From: a virus
Lineage: Duplodnaviria > Caudoviricetes
Virus record (IMG/VR): IMGVR_UViG_3300036851_000137
Coordinates: 1 to 51,037 of that record
DNA length: 51,037 nucleotides
Direction: 5' to 3' (one strand)
This document shows, piece after piece, positions 9,535 to 41,554 of the stretch. Below the pieces are notes generated by a model that saw only the letters and a list, made by a program, of their open reading frames with translations, was not told the origin of the DNA and ran no database searches. Numbering within the stretch: position 1 is the first letter of the stretch; the number at the start of each line of letters is the position of its first letter. The translations under genes were made by a program, and so were the position numbers.

Positions 9535-9642
9535 TGGGTGACATGGGTGACATGGGTGACATGGATTTCGGTATTTTGTCTATAACGCGCATATAAAGCG
9601 AGTTTTGAAGATATCATGTCACCTCATGTCACCTTGTCACCC
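9535..9642. repeat. Iteron-like repeats, probable replication origin
   Basis: (TGGGTGACA)x3 at 9535-9561 faces three inverted TGTCACC copies at 9615-9642 across an AT-richer spacer, directly downstream of the primase-helicase. Confidence 0.7.
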
Positions 9643-19850: not shown

Positions 19851-20089
19851 TTCGACCGCGCGCTAAAGCATCCGGCCGGCCTCGGTTCGCACCGCATCTC
19901 GACGATGCGCAGGTCGACAAACAGCCCAAAGTCGCGAACGGCGGTCATGGCCTCACGGCATGTCGATAGGGACTTTGCGCAGATCGGCTCGGGTGCTGGC
20001 GGGGTAGTTATTAATTCATAATCCCCCGACCCCGCTGCCGCAACAACAAATGGAACGATGATTGATAGAAGGATAATTCTAAACAACAT
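19823..20089 (-). CDS. Small secreted Cys-rich protein
   Basis: Signal-like N-terminus MLFRIILLSIIVPFVVAAA; six Cys. Confidence 0.45.
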   Translation of the reverse strand: MLFRIILLSIIVPFVVAAAGSGDYELITTPPAPEPICAKSLSTCREAMTAVRDFGLFVDLRIVEMRCEPRPAGCFSARSNCIVGYSCR

Positions 20090-20666
20090 GGTGCCACTTC
20101 GTCCCATTGATGACACCCCAAACAGTGCCTTGGCAGACCCCAAATAGTTTTGCTATTTCACGTTGCGTTGCTTTAGTATTAGCAAGAATGCGTATCTTTC
20201 TCACGTCGTCGTCAGTGAGTTTTGCTTCTCCATGAGCCATACCTTTGCGACCGTCTCGCCCAAAATTAGGGTGCCGATTGCCCAACAACACGGTCCCATG
20301 TCGGTATCTGTCTGCCGTATTTTCTTTTGCTGTACCCCACCTGAGATTGGAAGGTGTGTTGTTTGCGCGCGCCCCATCATTGTGACACGCTTGGTGAGCG
20401 GGCGACGGACACGGACCAACAAATGCCTCTAAAACCAACGCGTGCACAGGGCGACGCTTTACTGTGGAGATCAGTCCGCTATAGATTTTGACATAAAGGT
20501 ATCCACCTCGACCTTTTGTGGGGCGCATCATTAGGCCGGGACGCGCTCCTCTTGGTAGCGAGCGAACACGTCCCAAATCGGAAACTTCATAGCGTCCATC
20601 ATGCCCAACGACAGATCGCCAATTTTCGGCGGTGCCGATCGCGGCGTAGGACGGGAGTGCGATCAT
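20079..20666 (-). CDS. NUMOD4/HNH homing endonuclease
   Basis: ENWRSVVG...YEVSDLGRVRS, VHALVLEAFVG, CHNDG...NNTPSNLRW, C-terminal HTH. Confidence 0.92.
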   Translation of the reverse strand: MIALPSYAAIGTAENWRSVVGHDGRYEVSDLGRVRSLPRGARPGLMMRPTKGRGGYLYVKIYSGLISTVKRRPVHALVLEAFVGPCPSPAHQACHNDGARANNTPSNLRWGTAKENTADRYRHGTVLLGNRHPNFGRDGRKGMAHGEAKLTDDDVRKIRILANTKATQREIAKLFGVCQGTVWGVINGTKWHHVV

Positions 20667-20808
20667 CGGGGTGCCAGGAATGCATTGCCGCGCGCCACTT
20701 GGCCCTTGGTCGGGCGGCGCGGTGGTACGTGTTTCGCCGGCTTGCGCGGCGGCTTCTTCGGGGATTTCATCAGTGTAGCACCTGACCCTTAATGTTTGTT
20801 ATGAGCAA

Positions 20809-21631
20809 TTATACGCCGCAGATGCCTTCGCACTCGTTGTTGAACAAATCGCCTTGCCCGCGCTCCGCATCTGACCTGATGTCGGCGTGTTCGAGAGGGA
20901 CAAGACTGCGGTGCAAAAACAATTCGCTCCGCGTCTTGCTGAAACCGGGGCGGGATAAGGCGATCAACCGCAATGGCGTCCTCCCACTCCGCAGGATTCT
21001 GGCGGATCTGTCGCCAATGCTCATTCGAGTGGTACGGGCAACCGATGCACGAGCTTTTGGCTGGCGTGGGGAACCCGTTGCGCTCCATCCAAAGGAGGCA
21101 GTCGCTGCGGCTTAGGCGTTTCTCAATAAGCGGCCAGCGTCGCTCAATCCACGCGAGCGGCCCTGGCTTGACGCGGTAGATTTCATCCATCGAAATGCCG
21201 ATCCACATTTCGATCTGCGGTGTTTTCGGTTGCCGTTGGCGCGGCTTGATCCCGAGCTTTTCCTTCATCCGGCGCTCGATGGGTTCGATCTTGTAATGAC
21301 CCGTGCATTGCCTTCGGAGCGGAGCCGCAACCCCTCCCTTTCCCGCGACGAAGAATGGCGCCGTCGCCGCTCGGCCTTGCCCTCGGATAGCCTCGCCACG
21401 GGCCAATTTGTCGATGTCCTCGCGAATGTTGCCCTGCCTGACGATTTCAATGGGGAACGGTAGGACATTTGGCGACATGAGCCAGCGGAGGTGATCGTAA
21501 ACCGTCGCGGGTTCCCATCCCGTATCGGCGAAGATGGCGCAATCCGGCATTGGTCCTATCTCACCCGCCGCCGCCATGAGGGCAAGCGTGGTCGATTGGA
21601 CGCCGGCGCCTAGCGATAGGATGCGGAGCAT
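20809..21631 (-). pseudogene. PAPS-reductase-like phage protein with a frameshift near 20950
   Basis: SLGAGVQST, FADTGWE, RQCT..YKI, KSSCIGCPYH; the expected C-terminus LFLHRSLVPL...NNECEGICGV is in another frame ending at 20809. Confidence 0.75.
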
Positions 21632-21650
21632 GGTCTGCCCTTAATCTTTT

Positions 21651-22235
21651 TTAACGGCCAGCGGCGGCGATGGCCGCTCGATATCGGCGCGCCGCCGCAC
21701 CGCGAGAGAACCTTGAAGGCGCAGGGATGTCGCGATTCGCACTCCAAGCGACCATGCTCATGCGACCTACTGCTGGCGCAATCTCGGCAGCTGGGATCAG
21801 GAACGGGACGAGATCCTTCCGCCACACATTGATTTGACGAGACCGCCTCCCGCCTCCCTGCTGCTGTGCGATGCAGCGATAGCCAAGCGCTCGCCAGAAA
21901 TCATTAGCATCGATGTCGAACGCGCATCGAAGCTGAATGGCCTCCGAGCCATCCGCGTCCGCCTCAAGCACCCGGATAAGTCCCTCGCCATACAGTCGCC
22001 GCCGCGCGTCGTATTGGATGCAAACCTGATGGCAAGAAACGATACCGCCGAAGGCTCCATGCCAGACGTAGCCGCACGGCTCGCCGCCGAGCAGCCCGAG
22101 CAAGATACGCCCGGCGCTCAGTTCGCGCTCAAACGTGACCCGTGGGTAGAATGACAACGCTGTGGCATTCTTCCGTTGAAGGCTATCCACATAGGTCAGC
22201 AGGTCCGGGTGCGCTCTGACGGCCACGAAATCCAT
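21651..22235 (-). CDS. GNAT-family acetyltransferase
   Basis: QYDARRRLYGEGL (acetyl-CoA motif A) and ANDFWRALGY. Confidence 0.75.
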   Translation of the reverse strand: MDFVAVRAHPDLLTYVDSLQRKNATALSFYPRVTFERELSAGRILLGLLGGEPCGYVWHGAFGGIVSCHQVCIQYDARRRLYGEGLIRVLEADADGSEAIQLRCAFDIDANDFWRALGYRCIAQQQGGGRRSRQINVWRKDLVPFLIPAAEIAPAVGRMSMVAWSANRDIPAPSRFSRGAAARRYRAAIAAAGR

Positions 22236-22240
22236 GACTG

Positions 22241-22540
22241 TTAATGATCTTTATCAGTAGGCGCAATTATTGGGTTCCTATACGACATCTCGGCGTACTT
22301 ACTCCATAACCCCTCCGCAACAATGAAACTCTCTGCCATAACAGCTCTAGTTTCAGCCATTTGATAATAGGGCATCTTGCGTCCGTTTAATAACTCGCGA
22401 ACAGCGACGACATACTCGTGCCCGTCCGGCGAGTCCCGCACTCCAAGCAACGAGCCGATATCCTCAATGATCGACCTAAGAATACGCTCTTGCGGCGGCA
22501 TTGTCGGATCTAGCAAATCAACGGATTTCATATTCCCCAT
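22241..22540 (-). CDS. Hypothetical protein
   Basis: Bracketed by boundary sites 22238 and 22548. Confidence 0.55.
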   Translation of the reverse strand: MGNMKSVDLLDPTMPPQERILRSIIEDIGSLLGVRDSPDGHEYVVAVRELLNGRKMPYYQMAETRAVMAESFIVAEGLWSKYAEMSYRNPIIAPTDKDH

Positions 22541-22563
22541 ACCTTTACCGAGAAGGATACTTA

Positions 22564-22776
22564 TCAACTAATTGGAACGTGAACGGCCTTGCGTGGGTCG
22601 CCCATCAATCGGCGCAATTCATCATTCGGATGATCCGCAGGTTCTGCTAACCCCCGTTCGATCAGATACCGCATCGCTGCCGCCCGCGTCGGAGGCACCG
22701 TCTGCCGCTGCCGCCACTCATCCACGCGGGCTAGAAGCTCCGGCGCAATCAGCATCTCAAAACGATTTTCTCTCAT
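22564..22776 (-). CDS. Ribbon-helix-helix regulator divergent from the RAMP-like operon
   Basis: MRENRFEMLIAPELLARVDEWRQRQ..PTRAAAMRYLIERGL. Confidence 0.8.
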   Translation of the reverse strand: MRENRFEMLIAPELLARVDEWRQRQTVPPTRAAAMRYLIERGLAEPADHPNDELRRLMGDPRKAVHVPIS

Positions 22777-22802
22777 GCCCGGCATGATACGGAATTTTCC
22801 GG

Positions 22803-22830
22803 TTGACGCAAGCCAAAAATCTGCTACGGT
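22803..22830 (+). promoter_or_regulatory. Putative promoter of the RAMP-like/guide operon
   Basis: TTGACG-16 nt-TACGGT; same -10 hexamer as the leftward promoter at 14936. Confidence 0.55.
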
Positions 22831-22843
22831 ACATTCCGTAACG

Positions 22844-22913
22844 TCATCAGAATGGCACGGCACACACGGGAGTAGCCTTGCACTGAATGGCATAGACTTC
22901 AGCGGAAAGGCTC
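22844..22913 (+). ncRNA. 5-nt-periodic leader tract (putative gapped guide RNA)
   Basis: 14 consecutive pentamers, all N[GA/CA/GC]NN: tcatc agaat ggcac ggcac acacg ggagt agcct tgcac tgaat ggcat agact tcagc ggaaa ggctc. Confidence 0.75.
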
Positions 22914-22917
22914 AACG

Positions 22918-23493
22918 ATGGACACGATAAAATTCCATTTCAAAGGCTCGGCGCCAGCAATGATGCAGAGCGAACGGTTGGCAAACCCAATCGACCCGTT
23001 GACGAAAACGCTCAAGGCGATCACTGGCAAGCGGAAAAAGACCGACGCTGATTACGAGGAAATCGCCCGCATCAAGTTTCTGGGGAGCCTCTACTATGAC
23101 GAAAGGCTCGGTCCATATTGGCCGGCTCAGAACGTTGACCGCATGTTCTACGATGCGGCGAAACTGTCAAGGCGTGGCCCGGACGTGAAGCGGGCATTCA
23201 TGACGCTCGATGACAAGATCCCCATTATCTACGAAGGTCCACGCACCCCCGAAGCCATGTATGCTGTGCGGGATCGCTTCGTCGATGAACGCTCGGTCGT
23301 AGTGCAAAAGTCGCGCATTATGATGACGCGGCCCATTTTCCGAGAATGGGAAATCAAATTTGAGGCAGCATATGATCCCGAGGTTATCAATCGGGATGAC
23401 GTGATCGCTTTCGCACAGTTGGCGGGGCAGATGATCGGTCTCTCGACCTATCGCCCCCGGTTCGGCCGGTTTCAAGTTGTGTCTGCGGAATAG
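22918..23493 (+). CDS. RAMP/Cas7-like RNA-binding protein (VIPR-like effector)
   Basis: N-terminal strand plus G.APAMM, YWPAQNV, TRPIFREWEI, and C-terminal Gly-rich loop GQMIGLSTYRPRFGRFQV; flanked on both sides by periodic non-coding arrays. Confidence 0.7.
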   Translation: MDTIKFHFKGSAPAMMQSERLANPIDPLTKTLKAITGKRKKTDADYEEIARIKFLGSLYYDERLGPYWPAQNVDRMFYDAAKLSRRGPDVKRAFMTLDDKIPIIYEGPRTPEAMYAVRDRFVDERSVVVQKSRIMMTRPIFREWEIKFEAAYDPEVINRDDVIAFAQLAGQMIGLSTYRPRFGRFQVVSAE

Positions 23494-23819
23494 CCGTGGC
23501 GAGGAATTGATAACCGAGGCACAGATAACATACAGGCGAGGGTAAAACAGCGGATTGGTTCATTACATAGGCGCGCACATGCGATGAATGCAGCCGATGA
23601 CACGGGCGACGAGATCATACGACGCCACGAGAGTCGATCAGCAATCAGGACAACGGATTGGTTTATCAAATTGGCGGTGATTACATTTGAGCCGACACGA
23701 AGCTACCGGACCCGATCACAGAGGATTGGTTTATTACATCGGAGCGGACCAGCAATGAGCAGTCGCATCTGCACTCAGCAGATCGCAAGTGATAACCGCA
23801 GAGTGGAAAGGAATGGGTT
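23493..23819 (+). ncRNA. Array of four 5-nt-periodic tracts separated by GGATTGGTTYATY
   Basis: Separators at 23552, 23655 and 23723, with a variant GGAATGGGTTAT at 23810; the pentamers between them fit N[GA/CA/GC]NN, with 17 of 17 at 23570-23654. Confidence 0.85.
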
Positions 23820-24323
23820 ATGTCAGAACACCTTTTGCAGCAATATCCGGCATGGCGCGAAGCGATCAAGGCATTCATGCAGGAGCGTTTCGCGGCTGGA
23901 GATACCGTAACGTTCGATTGGCTCTATGAACATTTCCTGATCCAGCGCCCCGCTGGCTCGACCTTGCTCGCCGATGCGCAGAAGGCCGAGTTGCAATTCC
24001 TTAGCCAGTTCAAGAACTTTGAGGATGCTCTTCTAACCGAACATCAAATCGCGTTGACCAACGTGCGCGGCGTCGGATACCGCATCGTGCCGGCGGCAGA
24101 GCAAACGCGATGGGCCGAAGAGGAGGGCGTCGGCCAAGTTAAGAAGGCGATCCGCAAACTCGGCGATCGGCTTACCAACGTTGATCTCGTGCAGATCACC
24201 AACGAGCAACGCAAGGAGAACGCCGACGCTCTCGCTCGCCTAGCAATGCTGTCAGGAATGGTCAAGAGCGCGGTAGAACGGAAGTCCGCGCTTGAAATCA
24301 AGAAGCCAAAAGGTGACTGTTAA
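23820..24323 (+). CDS. Accessory protein of the RAMP-like operon (possible winged helix plus helical tail)
   Basis: GGAAAGGA RBS; LTNVRGVGYRIV wing-like motif; stop lies in boundary site 24317. Confidence 0.75.
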   Translation: MSEHLLQQYPAWREAIKAFMQERFAAGDTVTFDWLYEHFLIQRPAGSTLLADAQKAELQFLSQFKNFEDALLTEHQIALTNVRGVGYRIVPAAEQTRWAEEEGVGQVKKAIRKLGDRLTNVDLVQITNEQRKENADALARLAMLSGMVKSAVERKSALEIKKPKGDC

Positions 24324-24724
24324 GTGTTCTTATCGGCAATCTGCCCTGTAATCCATGCATGCATTCGCGTAAAGCGATCCTCGGGTGTTTCTCGGGAGTA
24401 CCACTCATCGTTCAGCCACATGATTTCCGCAGCCAATGCCGGGGCAATGCCGAATCTGTCGGCAATCGTTTCTAGATCCTCGGGGTCAATCTCGCGCATG
24501 TTGACGCCGCGCGCCTTCCCGACCGCACCGATTGAGCATACTTCGCCTTCTTGTTCTAGTTCATTTTGGATAAGGCACTTGCGCTCCATGCCATCAAAGG
24601 CAACCAACATCTCTCGTAGGAACGCCTGTCCCTTTCTTCCTTTGATGGCGCTAGCAACAGCGCCCCGCCACCGGATCAGCGACCATTGATCGTCGTAATC
24701 TTCGCTATATCCCGACCGGCTCAT
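24320..24724 (-). CDS. Conserved phage hypothetical protein
   Basis: MSRSGYSED...WRGAVASAIKGRKGQAFLREM; bracketed by sites 24317 and 24732. Confidence 0.75.
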   Translation of the reverse strand: MSRSGYSEDYDDQWSLIRWRGAVASAIKGRKGQAFLREMLVAFDGMERKCLIQNELEQEGEVCSIGAVGKARGVNMREIDPEDLETIADRFGIAPALAAEIMWLNDEWYSRETPEDRFTRMHAWITGQIADKNT

Positions 24725-24751
24725 TGGCGTGTCCTTAAAGTTTATTAACAG

Positions 24752-25882
24752 TCAATCAGCCGCCACATCGGCAAACAAGGGGCACTCGTCCTTGATCCGC
24801 CGCCGCGCCATCTCAGCATAAATGGGGTTTAGTTCGATGCCTATTGCATTGCACACTAAGCGATCGGCAACGAGTAGCGTAGTCCCGGCTCCGGCGAATG
24901 GATCCAGCACCGTCCCGCCTGATGGCGAACCCGCACGAATGCACGGCTCAACCAAGGCCGGCGGGAATGTAGCGAAATGCGCCTCCGGAAACGGTTGCGC
25001 TCCCACAGTCCAAACCGACCGCTTATTGCGCGTCCCGAGAACGGTGTATTCCGATTCTAGGAAGATCGCTGTACGCCGATCATTGACATCGCTCACATCA
25101 TCCCTTGCCGCAGCCGAATGAGCACCCACAATGCGCCCCTCGGAGACAGTCGGCTCGGCAATCGCCGCCGCATCAAAATAGTACCGATCGCTCTTGCTCA
25201 GCAAGAATAGGTACTCGTGCGCCTTCGTGCAGCGGTCGGTGACACTTTCCGGCATCGGATTCGGCTTCGCCCAAATAATGTCCTGCCGGAGCCACCAGCC
25301 ATCGGCGCGCAACGCGAAGGCTAGCATCCACGGGATGCCGATCAGATCCTTGCCTTTGATGTCGCCGCCTACCGGACCAACGCCATCACGGTTGCGCTGC
25401 CCGCGTTCGTCAACGATTCCGTCAGCTGTGTTCGTCGCCTGCTTGCCTGCGTCAGGATTGCCACCCTTGCCGCTCCCCGCGTAGCTGTCGCCAATGTTGA
25501 GCCAGAGCGTGCCGTCACTCCGCAGCACGCGGCGGACCTCGTGGAACACTGCGACCATTGCCGCCACGTATTCGTCGGGCGTCGATTCGAGACCGAGTTG
25601 CGCGTCAATTCGGACGGCACCGCATTTCGCGCACGTCTGACCCTGAGGCATCGTGTGTGTTCTAACTTTCACGGTTTCGCTAGTGTAGCCCGCTAACGAA
25701 GACGACGACGACGCAAGAGCCATACCTTTATGATCGCACGCCGGGTCGCCGCCCTCCCACGAGGCGGTGCCGTAATCCCTCAACCCATAATACGGCGGCG
25801 AGGTCACACAGCAATGCACGCTCTCGGCCGGCAGCTTCGCCAGCTCGGTTAGCGCGTCGCCTGTGATGACGCGAACGGTCAT
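24752..25882 (-). CDS. DNA methyltransferase, beta class (N4-C/N6-A), SPPY
   Basis: VTSPPY, IIWAKPNPMPESV, HFATFP, VLDPFAGAGTT. Confidence 0.93.
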   Translation of the reverse strand: MTVRVITGDALTELAKLPAESVHCCVTSPPYYGLRDYGTASWEGGDPACDHKGMALASSSSSLAGYTSETVKVRTHTMPQGQTCAKCGAVRIDAQLGLESTPDEYVAAMVAVFHEVRRVLRSDGTLWLNIGDSYAGSGKGGNPDAGKQATNTADGIVDERGQRNRDGVGPVGGDIKGKDLIGIPWMLAFALRADGWWLRQDIIWAKPNPMPESVTDRCTKAHEYLFLLSKSDRYYFDAAAIAEPTVSEGRIVGAHSAAARDDVSDVNDRRTAIFLESEYTVLGTRNKRSVWTVGAQPFPEAHFATFPPALVEPCIRAGSPSGGTVLDPFAGAGTTLLVADRLVCNAIGIELNPIYAEMARRRIKDECPLFADVAAD

Positions 25883-27093
25883 AAGCCTTTGTCGCTTAGG
25901 AAAAAATCCGGCACCGGAGCGCCCGCTTTGACGCGCTCGCCAATCGCTTGGACGGCCAGATCATAGGACTCCTTGGAGTCGATCGCTTCGTCGAATGGGC
26001 GATGCTCAAACAGCGGTAATTTTGCGCGTTCCTGAGAGACGGCGGCAGTCCTGCCGCCGTCTCTCAGGGCACCAATGCCCTCTGGCTGATGCCGGTTCTT
26101 GGCGACAACGCTATGCCGCCCCTCCCCCTTATAGTGCGCCATGCGCTCGCGGATGTCGGCGACATAGGCATCCTCGCGCTCGATCAGGATCGCGTTACGT
26201 CCAGTCGCGAGTGCAGCAACTCCGGTCGTACCGCTGCCGGCGAACGGGTCGAGCAACAGGCCGCCAGGAGGACAGACCAGCGCGGCGAGCCACTTCATCA
26301 ACTCGACCGGCTTCACAGTCGGATGGCGGCTGCCCCAGCGGTCTTGCCGCCCAGCCTTAGCCGAGAAGAAGAAGCGAGCGGCCGATCCGCCGTCGTCTTT
26401 TCCGTTTCGCTTGGCTGCGACACTGGCCGCGCTATCGGGGAACGCCACCAGCACCTCGTCGGAACCGTCGTGACAGATGTTCGCGGGCCAGCGGCCGACG
26501 TTAGGATCGAGGTCGGCATTGACGCCAACCATTCGAGAAAACGGCGCATTGCCGTTTGGGGTTTTGTCCTTCGACAAACTCGCTGGCACGCCTCGGGACA
26601 CGCCGATCCGGCACTCATCGATCTGCATCATCCGCTTGCCGCCCGGCTTGTAGGCGAGAACCAGTGGCTCGTAGGCGGGTTTTAGCATGTCCCGACGCTT
26701 GGGAAACCCGGTCGCGAATAGCCACATAATGCAATCCTGAATGACGAACCCGCCATCCTCGATCGCACACGCCAGCCGGTGATAGGTGCGGGTGCCGCCG
26801 AACGCGACAAGGAACGCGCCAGGGCGCAGGATCGTCGCTACCGTGGCCCATGTCTCAGGGCGGAAGGCGATGTCGCCACCGTCCCATTGCTGACCCATGA
26901 AGCCGCCTGAGAGGCGTACCATAGCGCCATCGCGACCGTGCTGAGCCGGAGCCGCATCGACCGCGCCAAAGCGCTTCTGCGTTGCCGTCAAGTGATAGGG
27001 TGGATCTGTCACGATCGCATCGCACGCCACGCCCTCTACGACGAGACGCGGGATCGCTTCTAGCATGTCGGCATGTTCGATGCGGATGGTCAT
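25879..27093 (-). CDS. DNA methyltransferase, beta class (N6-A), DPPY
   Basis: VTDPPY, GRWPAN, HPTVKP, LLDPFAGSGTT. Confidence 0.92.
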   Translation of the reverse strand: MTIRIEHADMLEAIPRLVVEGVACDAIVTDPPYHLTATQKRFGAVDAAPAQHGRDGAMVRLSGGFMGQQWDGGDIAFRPETWATVATILRPGAFLVAFGGTRTYHRLACAIEDGGFVIQDCIMWLFATGFPKRRDMLKPAYEPLVLAYKPGGKRMMQIDECRIGVSRGVPASLSKDKTPNGNAPFSRMVGVNADLDPNVGRWPANICHDGSDEVLVAFPDSAASVAAKRNGKDDGGSAARFFFSAKAGRQDRWGSRHPTVKPVELMKWLAALVCPPGGLLLDPFAGSGTTGVAALATGRNAILIEREDAYVADIRERMAHYKGEGRHSVVAKNRHQPEGIGALRDGGRTAAVSQERAKLPLFEHRPFDEAIDSKESYDLAVQAIGERVKAGAPVPDFFLSDKGL

Positions 27094-28411: not shown

Positions 28412-28600
28412 TTAATGGCTGTTCTGATCAGCAATGATCTGCCGCCCGAGCACCACCATCGCCTCGCCGAGACGGATCGCTACATCCGGGGTTAAGACAG
28501 TCTCGCGCAGGGTATCTCCCCACTCGCCGCCTGGTTCAGCGTCAACGAGCAGAACGTAACCCCCGTCACGCTTGACTGACATCGTGTAAACACCGCGCAT
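28412..28600 (-). CDS. Hypothetical protein
   Basis: ORF track; TGATG overlap with the upstream gene. Confidence 0.5.
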   Translation of the reverse strand: MRGVYTMSVKRDGGYVLLVDAEPGGEWGDTLRETVLTPDVAIRLGEAMVVLGRQIIADQNSH

Positions 28601-38806: not shown

Positions 38807-41554
38807 TCATGCTGTATTCTGTAACGCCCAGCCGACACCATCGTCAAAGTCTCCGGTGAATTTCGCCATCGCCGCCGTATAGGCCGCATCGCTATTTGCT
38901 GCCCCGCCAAGGGCGACGGACGACAGGGCCATCGCCGCAATCGCGTTCGCCACATAGCCATCTGTCGCACTTGCATTATCCGCGCTGCCCGCCACCCCGG
39001 ATGAGGGACAGGAGGTATCGTGCCACACACCGCCGACCCCCGAGGGACTGGTGGCATAGGTAATCGCCGTTCCACCTGGAGTCGTCGCGATTTTGAACGT
39101 TTTGGCCCCGATATTCAGATCCCGGACATAATACCGCCGTCCCTGCGTCAACTCAGCCGGGGGTGTCGTCGCGGCAACCCCCGACTGCGTAAGGCGATCG
39201 TAGGCATAGAAGTGATCGCCATCGACAAGGGTAAAGAGCGCATCCGAGCCCGACCATGTAATCGTCCCGTCAGTCGCGAACGCATACGAGGTATTGCTGC
39301 CGGGTACATTGCCAACATCGTCCCAGGAGGCTGCGTAATCGCTCTCGGTAAAGAGCGGCCCATACTCGTATCCTGTCCCAAAGAACGGGCAAAAGGTGCT
39401 GTAGATGTTCGCCATCCATGTATCGCAGAAGTTCGACAGAAACGTGTTGAGCGGGGTCGCAAGGTCCGGGTCGTCTCCGAGCAGCATCCCGGTATAGCCC
39501 AGCGTCGCCGCCGCGTACCAGCTCATGTAGTTCGACATGATTGTCAGATCGCGCCGGGTTGACGGAATGTCCGCGTCGAACACATAAAATCCCATCGTCT
39601 GGTAGTTGGTCCCTTTCGCCGCCCGGTCAGCGACATACCAGTCGAGGATATTCTTCAGCACTTGAATGAGGTACGCCTTCTCGTCCGACCCGTCCGGCGC
39701 GACGAAGGCGGCATAGGCGATATCCCGCAAGGCCCAGAACGCAATACGGAGATTCAACCCCCCTTCGGTGATGACCAGCGCGTAATAGGTCGTGCCGGTT
39801 CCCCCGACCTGCCTATTGCGATTGGCAAGAAAGGACTTTTGCAAAATCCCGGCGTTCCCCGCGAAGTAAAGCATCTCCCGCAGATAATCCCCGCCCTCCA
39901 TCAGCCACGTTGCGAAGATCGGGGCCGGTGTATGACTCGTATTCGGCGTGAAACTCTGCGTGAATTGGCCGCCGCCCCCGGTGAATGTCCCGGTCCCCGC
40001 CCCGATCTGCGTCGAACAGCTACCCCCAAGCGCGAACGCCGTTTCCAGTCCCGTCCCAAGTCCCGCCGGGAGTTGCGCGGTCGGCAGCAGACCAGGAATC
40101 TTTCCCGTCGCGCTATTCCTCCAAGCCCGCCCTATTGCCCCCATGCCATAGGCCGAAACCCGCGCCCAGCGTTGCGCCGCCTGGTCGTTCTTGACCAGCA
40201 TCGCGGAGGACCATTCGGTCAGAAGGCCGATATCGTCTCTGTTTCCCGTGGCACCAAGATCACGGCAGATGCTCGCCCGCGCCAAGGGGCCACAGCAGAG
40301 CCGCACGAAAACGCTCGTCCCGGCACCGGTCGGGACTAACTTGCCGGTAGCGCCCCCCGCGATCGCGTTGGGCAGCGTGTCATAGAGTTGGAATGTGTTC
40401 GCGTCGATGAAATCCGCCCAATACACGTTACCGTCTGCGAACCCCGTACCTGACGGCAGCACCGTCCCTCGGAAGTCTATCGCGGTCGGGAACGCGGTCG
40501 AGTTCGCCCCGAAGATCGCCGTCATGTTCCCGGTAGAGGTCACGATCCCGGTGCTGGTGCTGATCGTACATGCCCACTCGGCCGCCTGCGTGTACACGAG
40601 CCCGGTCTTGAATGGCGGGATCTTCTTGGTCGCTCGAACGAGATTGTAGTCCTGAGTGACGACCAGCGACGGCTCGTTTGTTGACCAATCGCCCTGCCCG
40701 TCCACCCGGCATCCCGCCGCGATCGCGCCACAATGCAACTCGACCCCGACCCGAGTCCGCTGCGCCGCGCCACCACGCTTCCAGGTCATATCGAAGTTGA
40801 ATCGGCTCGGATCGGTCAGATCCATCAGGGTGTTCTCGATAAACGGTCCCCTCGAACGAACAGGGCCGAGGCTGGTGTCTGCCTTCTGGCAAACCCAATA
40901 CTCCATGACCGCCTGGAGGAAGCGGTGCGTCGATCCGGTGTTGACGAAGGCAGCGCGGACCAGAACCTTGAGCCCACGCGGCCCCTGTCCCGTGATCGTG
41001 ATCGTGTTGGTGCCGCCAGCATCAAAAGCCGCCGTATACGTCCCCGCCTTGTCCATGTTGTTGCCGCTGGTGCCGGTCGTTGTCATGTTCGTCAGCTCGA
41101 CCGTATCGACGAGCCCGGTCCAATCCGCATTGGTCCGCGCAGTCGTCGTGCTCCAGCTTCCGGCGGTCGATGTCAACACCAGATCGGAGCTTGCCGCAGC
41201 GGCCAGCGAGATGCCCGACAAGTCCACCAGCAACTCGGTCCAGGCGAGGGAGCCATCCGCGTGGGTGATCGACCCGACGCCCTGCACTGGCACCGAGACG
41301 CCGCCAACCGTACCCGTAACGATGCTCCCACTCGGCACCTCGCCCTCGATGAACGGGTGCCCAATCGACCAGAACGCCGTCGCCGGCAGGGCCGACCCCG
41401 AGACGTTGGTAAATGTCCGTTCCAACGGGATCGTCGCCGGCGGCGGAGCGCTTCCGGCGGCCCCGCCACGCCAAAACAGCCGCGCACCAGCATCCGCTTG
41501 ATACAGCGCCGCCCCCGCGACACCCCCAAGAAGCGCTCTCCGACGAGAAATCAC
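38807..41554 (-). CDS. Large protein with twin-arginine-like signal; possibly a polysaccharide-lyase-like or receptor-binding protein
   Basis: MISRRRALLGG; GHPF..GEVP...VPVQ...HADGS N-terminal barrel pattern; TGNRDDIG; two tail-fibre-like YYV...TF.(L/I)A inserts. Confidence 0.6.
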   Translation of the reverse strand: MISRRRALLGGVAGAALYQADAGARLFWRGGAAGSAPPPATIPLERTFTNVSGSALPATAFWSIGHPFIEGEVPSGSIVTGTVGGVSVPVQGVGSITHADGSLAWTELLVDLSGISLAAAASSDLVLTSTAGSWSTTTARTNADWTGLVDTVELTNMTTTGTSGNNMDKAGTYTAAFDAGGTNTITITGQGPRGLKVLVRAAFVNTGSTHRFLQAVMEYWVCQKADTSLGPVRSRGPFIENTLMDLTDPSRFNFDMTWKRGGAAQRTRVGVELHCGAIAAGCRVDGQGDWSTNEPSLVVTQDYNLVRATKKIPPFKTGLVYTQAAEWACTISTSTGIVTSTGNMTAIFGANSTAFPTAIDFRGTVLPSGTGFADGNVYWADFIDANTFQLYDTLPNAIAGGATGKLVPTGAGTSVFVRLCCGPLARASICRDLGATGNRDDIGLLTEWSSAMLVKNDQAAQRWARVSAYGMGAIGRAWRNSATGKIPGLLPTAQLPAGLGTGLETAFALGGSCSTQIGAGTGTFTGGGGQFTQSFTPNTSHTPAPIFATWLMEGGDYLREMLYFAGNAGILQKSFLANRNRQVGGTGTTYYALVITEGGLNLRIAFWALRDIAYAAFVAPDGSDEKAYLIQVLKNILDWYVADRAAKGTNYQTMGFYVFDADIPSTRRDLTIMSNYMSWYAAATLGYTGMLLGDDPDLATPLNTFLSNFCDTWMANIYSTFCPFFGTGYEYGPLFTESDYAASWDDVGNVPGSNTSYAFATDGTITWSGSDALFTLVDGDHFYAYDRLTQSGVAATTPPAELTQGRRYYVRDLNIGAKTFKIATTPGGTAITYATSPSGVGGVWHDTSCPSSGVAGSADNASATDGYVANAIAAMALSSVALGGAANSDAAYTAAMAKFTGDFDDGVGWALQNTA

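Follow-up and report, generated by a model that had tools for sequence, protein, structure and literature searches.

A phage VIPR locus with a variant repeat scaffold and predicted guides against IS1595-family transposase genes

The segment at positions 23493-23551 of this phage genome is probably the variable region of the first vrRNA in a VIPR array, targeting IS1595 transposase genes; on this reading, rival mobile DNA is the apparent object of a CRISPR-like gene silencer carried by the phage. The window, by which we mean the whole stretch of DNA analyzed, is a complete IMG/VR virus record of 51,037 nt, and the segment lies within it between the gene for a Vipr protein and a gene that we call vap. 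A first-pass annotation had read every fourth and fifth base of the segment and recognized in the result the first catalytic motif of IS1595 transposases, a claim now supported by a published skip rule, by the VIPR locus in which the segment resides, and by a search for its targets.

VIPR (Viral Interference Programmable Repeat) was first described in 2026 (10.64898/2026.04.26.720920; 10.64898/2026.04.26.720927; 10.64898/2026.10.15.759431). Its protein, Vipr, is characterized in the 2026 VIPR preprints as a minimal RAMP of ~20 kDa with an RRM core, a G-loop, and a thumb, and polymerizes on a vrRNA composed of 9 to 16 repeats of the form G1-G2-Y3-N4-N5 plus a 3′ tail (10.64898/2026.04.26.720920). 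Within the polymer, Vipr withholds GGY and presents NN, such that the NN pair with DNA and one target base in three, usually the codon wobble, is skipped (10.64898/2026.04.26.720920; 10.64898/2026.04.26.720927). Because VIPR vrRNAs are thus read at two of every five bases, the decoding applied in the first-pass annotation is the published rule. Natural targets, as called by the discoverers at ≥80% NN match, lie in competing mobile elements (10.64898/2026.04.26.720920), and those described so far are satellites, prophages or prophage regulators, and other VIPRs (10.64898/2026.04.26.720920; 10.64898/2026.10.15.759431). Insertion-sequence or transposon targets are absent from the main texts of 10.64898/2026.04.26.720920 and 10.64898/2026.10.15.759431; the word “transposase” occurs once in the main text of the former, for a Cas1-like transposase.

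Layout of the locus and its two proteins

The locus is ordered vipr–array–vap, with the 326-nt array filling the gap from the stop of the open reading frame (ORF) at 22918..23493 to the ORF at 23820..24323, and with tract 1 at the start of that gap (the TAG stop of vipr ends at position 23493). The features, all on the plus strand, are as follows.

22844..22913 (+): tract 0, a candidate upstream vrRNA tract of 14 consecutive units N-[G/C]-[A/C]-NN
22918..23493 (+): vipr, 191 aa, a predicted Cas7-like RAMP, from its profile match to SUSP1 Vipr
23493..23551 (+): tract 1, probable vrRNA variable region of 12 units, from scaffold register, targets, recurrence, and a shuffled-guide null
23528..23531 (+): the 4-nt unit ACAT, its scaffold one base short and the register moved by 1
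23551..23587 (+): first copy of the conserved repeat (CGGATTGGTTCATTACAT...), from the repeat family, and a candidate for the 3′ tail of vrRNA 1
23570..23654 (+): tract 2, 17 units (20 when 23560 is taken as the start) in unbroken register, from scaffold fit and the IS1595 match
23654..23690 (+): conserved repeat copy 2, from the repeat family
23673..23722 (+): tract 3, 10 units, 9 of which fit the scaffold, overlapping repeat copy 2
23722..23758 (+): conserved repeat copy 3, from the repeat family
23760..23809 (+): tract 4, 10 units, from scaffold fit, running into the vap ribosome-binding region
23820..24323 (+): vap, 167 aa, predicted winged helix then long helices, from homology to the gene adjoining vipr in SUSP1

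We assign the locus to VIPR because it combines a Vipr gene, a vap1-like gene, and tracts of 5-nt period with a conserved repeat after them; it is a real member of that group, with a variant scaffold and a target class not encountered in the main texts searched. The lag-5 self-identity of the entire 326-nt gap is 0.352 (z 3.7), a value reached by none of 1,000 shuffles, and the gap is the top-scoring 326-nt stretch of the phage by this measure. The units of the array (12, 17 to 20, 10, and 10 in tracts 1 through 4, the 12 of tract 1 falling within the published 9 to 16) are built on the scaffold N-[G/C]-[A/C], which we defined from tract 2 and to which background sequence fits at a rate of 0.32. 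This is not GGY and is also outside the alternatives NNNGG, YNNNG, and NNNNG listed in the Methods of 10.64898/2026.04.26.720920.

Other computational screens of the locus returned nothing: no sigma-70-like promoter was found, the RNA fold of 23480-23830 was no better in energy than shuffles (z +0.41), Rfam gave no family at E values up to 5, Tandem Repeats Finder gave no period-5 row, and blastn of the locus against phages gave no match. Two other identities were considered and rejected. The array is not a CRISPR array, which would have near-identical direct repeats (24 to 48 nt) and evenly sized unique spacers alongside cas genes; here, the repeats share 63 to 80% identity, the intervals between them are 103 and 68 nt, and the sole RAMP is Vipr. 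Nor is it a piece of an IS1595 element: PF12762 is absent from all six frames of the 51-kb record, so that tract 1 is to be read as a guide against IS1595 and not as a fragment of it.

A profile of the phage Vipr matches the PDB entry 36pp_D (“SUSP1 Vipr protein”) over its full length (residues 1-188) at an E value of 4.7e-61, with 34.6% identity to the Vipr of phage SUSP1. Its predicted model (pLDDT 94.7) retrieves Cmr4 and Csm3 with Foldseek (E values from 3.9e-5 upward; 29 matches at E ≤ 1e-3), and VIA compares the model with Cmr4 at Z 10.4, all of which is consistent with a predicted Cas7-family RAMP fold. The phage protein retains the SUSP1 residues K33, R39, K82, R138, and R179, and R138 is conserved along with the RPRFGRF G-loop; in SUSP1 Vipr, alanine substitution of K33, K82, or R138 abolishes silencing and that of R39 reduces it (10.64898/2026.04.26.720927). 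Three positions have changed (H17 to Q, D177 to T, and W178 to Y), of which H17 and D177 are the G1-reading residues of SUSP1. The Vipr of a related locus, L038, has H17 and D177 replaced as in the phage protein and yet is accompanied by GGC scaffolds; hence, these residue changes do not explain the scaffold. The Vipr proteins of the closest relatives are 86 to 89% identical to that of the phage.

The product of vap shares 28% identity over 116 aa (E 2e-12) with that of the gene adjoining vipr in SUSP1, which we infer to be vap1 from its position and from the description of the locus in the VIPR work. Its model (pLDDT 88.6) gives weak matches to OmpR/PhoB-type DNA-binding domains (E about 0.04, probability 0.96), from which Vap is predicted to be a winged-helix DNA binder. 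The two genes are linked in all 26 loci holding both, abutting in 17 and lying 100 to 750 nt apart in the other 9. In each of these nine gaps of at least 100 nt (which include two near-duplicates of two others), lag-5 identity lies beyond all 1,000 shuffles, with z values of 6 to 12 in the relatives. The 5-nt units of the relatives take the form GGC/GGT+NN in L038, L053, and L064 and xGA+NN in L036, L037, L057, and L060, and in both forms they are anchored on the tail in a register matching that of the phage array. In the GGATTGG-type arrays (L036, L057, L037, and L060), each tract leads into a conserved repeat, and the last copy of that repeat supplies the downstream gene with its actual ribosome-binding site and start codon ATG. 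No IS1595 match was found among 33 tail-anchored tracts of these relatives (including 5 duplicates from L057), the maximum being 7 of 12 units.

Register and targets of tract 1

Tract 1 consists of eleven 5-nt units and one 4-nt unit (GCCGT GGCGA GGAAT TGATA ACCGA GGCAC AGATA ACAT ACAGG CGAGG GTAAA ACAGC), whose NN pairs (GT GA AT TA GA AC TA AT GG GG AA GC) read V-E-I-(Y)-E-T-Y-I-G-G-K-A. The letters, the division into units, and the position of ACAT at 23528 given in the first-pass annotation proved exact on re-reading. The same sequence is found over 23300-23900 in a second assembly (a Logan contig from run X1, depth 12.4, possibly the source sample itself); neither the short unit nor the mismatch is thus a peculiarity of the IMG/VR record, and both are real in the assembled DNA.

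The register of tract 1 can be set from the scaffold, independently of what the NN pairs spell. In the register of the first-pass annotation, the scaffold is matched by all 7 units that precede the short one and by 3 of the 4 that follow; no other register reaches more than 2 of 6 before it and 1 of 4 beyond it. The fit requires the register to slip at ACAT. Its phase is kept on entering GGA-TT GGT-TC, which is also the case in the relatives. Triplets conforming to GGY occupy only 2 of the 12 units, and position 2 of the scaffold can be C. Allowing one unit off and one 1-nt slip, we expect 2.5e-5 matches per window to VE(I/V)DETY(I/V)GGK at period 5, and the sole match is at 23496. Taken by itself, tract 1 has a lag-5 self-identity of 0.346 that is not significant (127 of 1,000 shuffles reach it), and the strict period-5 pattern with no slip has no match in the window even at 3 mismatches. 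Across the window, IS1595-like decodings of two bases in five number 13 at 9 of 11 units, versus 16.0 ± 5.8 in 70 shuffles; there is no general excess of them over the phage, and the IS1595 signal is restricted to the array.

As for the motif itself, E-DESYFG is described as the first block of a predicted catalytic-site signature in the IS1016 subgroup of IS1595 (PMC12561309), and it is from this literature that the D of VE(I/V)DETY(I/V)GGK is predicted to be catalytic. The motif given in the first-pass annotation does occur in the family: [VT][EQ]xDE[TS][YFM]xGG[KL] is present in 11 of 15 PF12762 loci, all drawn from one bacterial order.

When the NN letters of tract 1 were searched under the 1-nt-skip rule at ≤3 mismatches of 24, 2 matches were recovered in a set of 121 genomes, and 24 matches in 19 genomes of a set of 401. 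All 24 read VExDET[YFC]xGGKx, and the three best match at 22/24; all 10 of the ORFs tested among them carry both PF12762 and PF12760. Controls on the 401 genomes, namely the pattern written backwards and the NN letters with a 2-nt skip, yielded 0 matches each. The gapped search that the first-pass annotation had proposed, with a lack of enrichment over controls as the outcome that would count against its decoding, thus gave 24 matches versus 0. Among viral contigs, 51 match 11 units of tract 1 exactly when unit 4 is allowed to be G or T, and every one of these matches lies in frame within an IS1595-like ORF. Three of the targets also match unit 12, raising the match to 23/24. Unit 4 was reported in the first-pass annotation to read TA in place of an expected GA; the targets bear this out, with GA in 51 of 51, which leaves the guide mismatched at the Asp codon.

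The skipped base of the targets is the codon wobble on the coding strand of IS1595-family transposase genes, and the targets match at more than the 80% of NN positions that the discoverers require. The phage itself contains no self-target of the tract 1 guide. Against 15 IS1595 loci picked by Pfam score alone, tract 1 reaches 20/24, whereas none of 1,000 permuted guides does so (maximum 19).

The guide also recurs in other VIPR loci. A strict, 5-nt-spaced version of the tract 1 guide is found in two viral contigs, L142 and L143, where we estimate about 0.1 to be expected. Both guides keep an unbroken 5-nt register on xGC/xTC scaffolds, their NN pairs read VEVDETY[VI]GGK with GA at the Asp codon position, and both adjoin Vipr homologues (hhalign probability 96.1 and 97.6) as well as winged-helix-like ORFs. 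These loci resemble that of the phage in joining an IS1595 motif-1 guide to a Vipr homologue and a winged-helix-like ORF, although their Vipr proteins are only distantly related to that of the phage (hhalign E values of 3.5e-9 and 3.5e-12 to the profile) and the gene order in L143, vap–array–vipr, is unlike the vipr–array–vap of the phage.

Tract 2, the repeats, and the remaining tracts

In tract 2 (23570-23654), the scaffold fits 16 of 16 units in a single register, with no other register exceeding 6 of 16, against a background fit of 0.32. Its NN pairs read A-[HQ]-[DE]-[IM]-A-[CW*]-R-[DE]-[DE]-[Y*]-R-R-V-S-[KN]-G-T and match a C-terminal motif of IS1595 transposases, AQExxWREDxRRVSNG, at 28 to 30 of 34 NN positions. 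That two separate tracts point to the same transposase family, as proposed in the first-pass annotation, is upheld by this match. The 12 tail-proximal units alone give one match in the 121 genomes, inside a PF12762 ORF, and none in the control; the full 17-unit tract matches G088/L144 at 28/34, in frame, in a target that reads AQEASWREDNRRVSNG. Other loci are matched at 28/34 (L027), 26/34 (L028), and 25/34 (L035), and six viral contigs at 28 to 30 of 34, one of which has the guide's own Y. An exact search with 10 units of tract 2 gave 0 matches in viral contigs, and matches appear once the TA unit is relaxed. PF12762 is present in 6 of the 7 ORFs matched by tract 2, and no permutation out of 1,000 in the shuffled-guide null reaches 28/34.

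The two tracts fit different subgroups of IS1595. Four of the 15 Pfam-chosen loci (L027, L028, L034, and L035) lack the motif-1 regular expression, and three of these four carry the tract 2 motif; among the ORFs examined, none is matched by both guides at ≥80%.

Tracts 1, 2, and 3 are each followed by a conserved repeat, the copies of which form a 41-nt family with 63 to 80% identity and overlap units that conform to the scaffold. Its 18-nt core occurs in 3 copies in the window, all in the array, versus 0.19 expected, and 0 of 100 shuffles reach 3. A 17-nt core of the repeat has 7 single matches in viral contigs, which we take as chance.

The remaining tracts fit the scaffold and are without a recognized target. 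Tract 0, for which we estimate that ~0.01 runs of 14 scaffold-fitting units would be expected in the window at a background of 0.32, runs into the Shine-Dalgarno sequence and ATG of vipr; it overlaps the first 50 nt of a minus-strand ORF (22564..22893) whose family match begins at residue 44. Against IS1595, tract 0 matches at 5 to 6 of 14 units, which is inside the range of permuted controls. No target was found for tract 3. Tract 4 runs into GGAAT GGGTT ATG, the ribosome-binding region of vap, and a search with its 10 units found 0 exact matches in viral contigs and no target.

Interpretation and relation to known systems

On the reading that we consider probable, each unit of the array would consist of a 3-nt scaffold, N-[G/C]-[A/C], followed by two guide bases. 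If the solved SUSP1 complex is taken as the model, each Vipr protomer would engage a single unit, retaining its scaffold bases and presenting its NN. The NN pairs would base-pair with one strand of DNA, with every third target base flipped out. The 12 NN of tract 1 would thereby be directed to the coding strand of IS1595 genes at VE(I/V)DETY(I/V)GGK, which is the initial block of the catalytic signature, skipping the wobble, and the vrRNA of tract 2 to a second conserved block, AQExxWREDxRRVSNG, in another IS1595 subgroup. The likely effect would be transcriptional silencing of the IS1595 transposases of host or rival prophages, irrespective of synonymous differences among them. This mechanism would entail that the RNA is transcribed, processed, and bound by Vipr, that silencing follows, and that the phage benefits. 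A point against it is that the 4-nt unit breaks the 5-nt register required for one-protomer-per-repeat binding.

This irregularity lies at the heart of the alternative that tract 1 derives from an IS1595-directed vrRNA but is now inactive, which we consider unlikely though well above the other rivals. Such a history would have a 1-nt scaffold deletion, after which the seven units upstream of it and the four downstream no longer share a phase, together with a G-to-T change at the Asp codon, and the 4-nt unit and the T-for-G may indeed weaken or disable the guide. In keeping with this, L142 and L143 have an unbroken register and GA at unit 4, the viral-contig targets have GA in all 51 cases, and tract 2 in the same array is regular over 20 units, so that irregularity is not the local norm. 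Set against decay are the 23 of 24 NN positions that still fit the consensus motif, by which any decay would be very recent; the acceptance of natural targets at 80% NN match by the discoverers (10.64898/2026.04.26.720920); and the intactness of both vipr and vap. Moreover, seven in-phase units might still bind, given that 7-subunit intermediates were seen with RNA targets (10.64898/2026.04.26.720927).

That the match arises by coincidence, in ordinary intergenic DNA and from a free choice of period, offset, slip, and motif, is already close to refuted, and we give it almost no credence. It draws on the need to allow one slip and one mismatch (the strict pattern matching nothing), on the IS1595-like decodings being no commoner window-wide than in shuffles, and on the absence of lag-5 periodicity from tract 1 taken alone. 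However, the expectation of 2.5e-5 matches is low and the register is fixed independently by the scaffold; the segment adjoins a Vipr gene and follows a decoding rule that has been published; and tract 2 also matches IS1595, the tract 1 guide occurs in two other VIPR loci, and the controls gave 0. An initial view of the decoding as numerology within an unremarkable intergenic spacer was abandoned in light of the period-5 arrays in relatives, Vipr, and the published rule. It is also very improbable that the three GGATTGGTT repeats and the periodic tracts serve regulation at the DNA level, as operators or iterons for vap or as vap translation leaders. The predicted winged-helix fold of Vap would suit such a role, as would the resemblance of the repeat to the vap ribosome-binding region, the last copy of which is a real Shine-Dalgarno sequence and ATG in relatives, and the fact that vipr and vap abut with no array between them in most relatives. 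Nevertheless, DNA-level regulation would leave unexplained both the units of three scaffold and two variable bases, which are common to experimentally demonstrated vrRNAs, and the NN matches to transposase genes, which are seen under the 1-nt-skip rule only; as for the abutting genes, the arrays of SUSP1-type loci simply sit outside the gene pair.

VIPR is a known kind of system, from which this locus departs in three ways: its scaffold, an array located between vipr and vap, and its predicted class of target. Like the type II VIPR of SUSP1, it has a homologous Vipr and neighbor gene, tandem 5-nt repeats with two variable bases, and a conserved segment after them; in both, the NN match genes for mobile-element proteins by a 1-nt skip, with the wobble skipped and no self-target. 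In SUSP1, however, the array lies outside the gene pair and the scaffold is G-G-Y, as opposed to N-[G/C]-[A/C] here, where the G1 readers H17 and D177 are replaced; furthermore, unlike that of SUSP1, the repeat after the tracts in the phage lacks an evident hairpin and reproduces the sequence around the vap ribosome-binding site. The predicted target, an insertion-sequence transposase, also differs. A further parallel is the SUSP1 VIPR directed at the F5 satellite, likewise described as a guide against a mobility enzyme of a competitor, codon-periodic and closed to synonymous escape (10.64898/2026.10.15.759431). There, the target is the excision recombinase of one satellite, whereas the guides of the phage correspond to catalytic-domain motifs across an insertion-sequence family (19 of 401 genomes and 51 viral contigs). 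Beyond VIPR, the system resembles the crRNA-Cas7 backbone of Class 1 CRISPR systems in its Cas7/Csm3/Cmr4 RAMP fold, in having one protomer per fixed step of the guide, and in periodic base flipping. VIPR takes a 5-nt step with 3 bases withheld, as against a 6-nt step with 1 withheld in Class 1 CRISPR, and, unlike the latter, the locus is devoid of a repeat-spacer array, adaptation genes, and other cas genes and holds its guide information noncontiguously.

We tentatively suggest, as a reading slightly less likely than not, that phage VIPRs can act as family-wide anti-transposon silencers, with two guides here against catalytic-domain motifs of two IS1595 subgroups, the motif-1 guide present in at least three distantly related VIPR lineages, and a non-GGY scaffold. 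With the wobble base skipped, a single guide is matched to a conserved protein motif instead of to one DNA sequence, and such a guide can cover a protein family (in this case, 24 sites in 19 of 401 genomes plus the 51 viral contigs). If the family-wide reading is true, the N-[G/C]-[A/C] scaffold implies that this Vipr recognizes its scaffold differently and perhaps tolerates a 4-nt unit. A natural non-GGY scaffold alongside changed G1-reading residues would help in charting scaffold recognition by Vipr and in engineering. Overall, a decoding that resembled numerology can be the correct use of a new code, and the locus provides a testable case of phage guides against the catalytic motifs of insertion sequences, one that would extend VIPR from phage-phage to phage-transposon conflict.

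Surroundings of the VIPR locus

The VIPR locus lies in a part of the window (20079-27093) in which transcription runs mostly from the opposite strand and which is an early or accessory region. Its neighbors include an HNH/NUMOD4 endonuclease, a PAPS-reductase-like gene, a GNAT-like ORF, a ribbon-helix-helix repressor-like ORF, and an N6/N4 DNA methylase with a second ORF alongside. A 108-aa ORF spanning the array (23584-23910) matches no family and is best treated as spurious.

Immediately 5′ of the vipr ATG is a tract of 14 scaffold-conforming units (22844-22913), which shares the first 50 nt of an annotated minus-strand ORF (22564..22893). The match of this ORF to a repressor family begins only at residue 44, and internal Met codons are present; its true start is therefore probably further inside the annotated frame, in which case the tract would lie in a divergent intergenic region holding an additional candidate vrRNA.

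Scaffold-conforming runs of 9 to 10 units also occur outside the VIPR locus:

Scaffold-conforming runs elsewhere in the window
28425-28474, scaffold-conforming run
41361-41405 (+), scaffold-conforming run
25325-25369 (-), scaffold-conforming run

Because about 3 to 4 runs of this length are expected per window by chance, these are probably not vrRNAs.

Two further repeats lie at 9535-9564 and 9614-9641. TGGGTGACA is present in 3.3 copies, and a nearby TCATGTCACC tandem repeat, 50 nt distant, contains the GGTGACA core of TGGGTGACA in reverse complement. The repeats sit at a low-GC spot where GC skew switches sign, a candidate site for an operator or origin.

Arrays of related and distant loci

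In the related phage locus L038 (1733-2485), the array comprises about eight to nine GGC/NN modules, with six of seven spacings (102, 92, 82, 87, 112, and 87) equal to 2 modulo 5. One tract ends in three copies of GGCTT GGCAC, which suggests growth by 10-nt slippage. The distant VIPR loci L142 (2056-3480) and L143 (1084-1423) have the G-loop GIGRFRP(Q/R)N and also differ in gene order (vap–array–vipr in L143); each of the three tracts of L143 ends in GG(G)TT(A/T)CTACC.

Post-tract repeats and the vap start

A conserved repeat follows each tract, both in the window and in four related loci (L036, L037, L057, and L060), and nearly copies the translation-initiation region of vap.

Copies of the post-tract repeat and the vap initiation region in the window
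23551-23568, conserved repeat
23654-23671, conserved repeat
23722-23739, conserved repeat
23805-23822, vap translation-initiation region

Among these relatives, the repeat reads AGAGGATTGGTTTATTGGA, and its final copy, AGAGGATTGGTTTGATGG, serves as the real Shine-Dalgarno sequence and ATG, whereas ATT stands at the ATG position in inner copies. The arrays may have grown by duplication of a tract together with the gene start.
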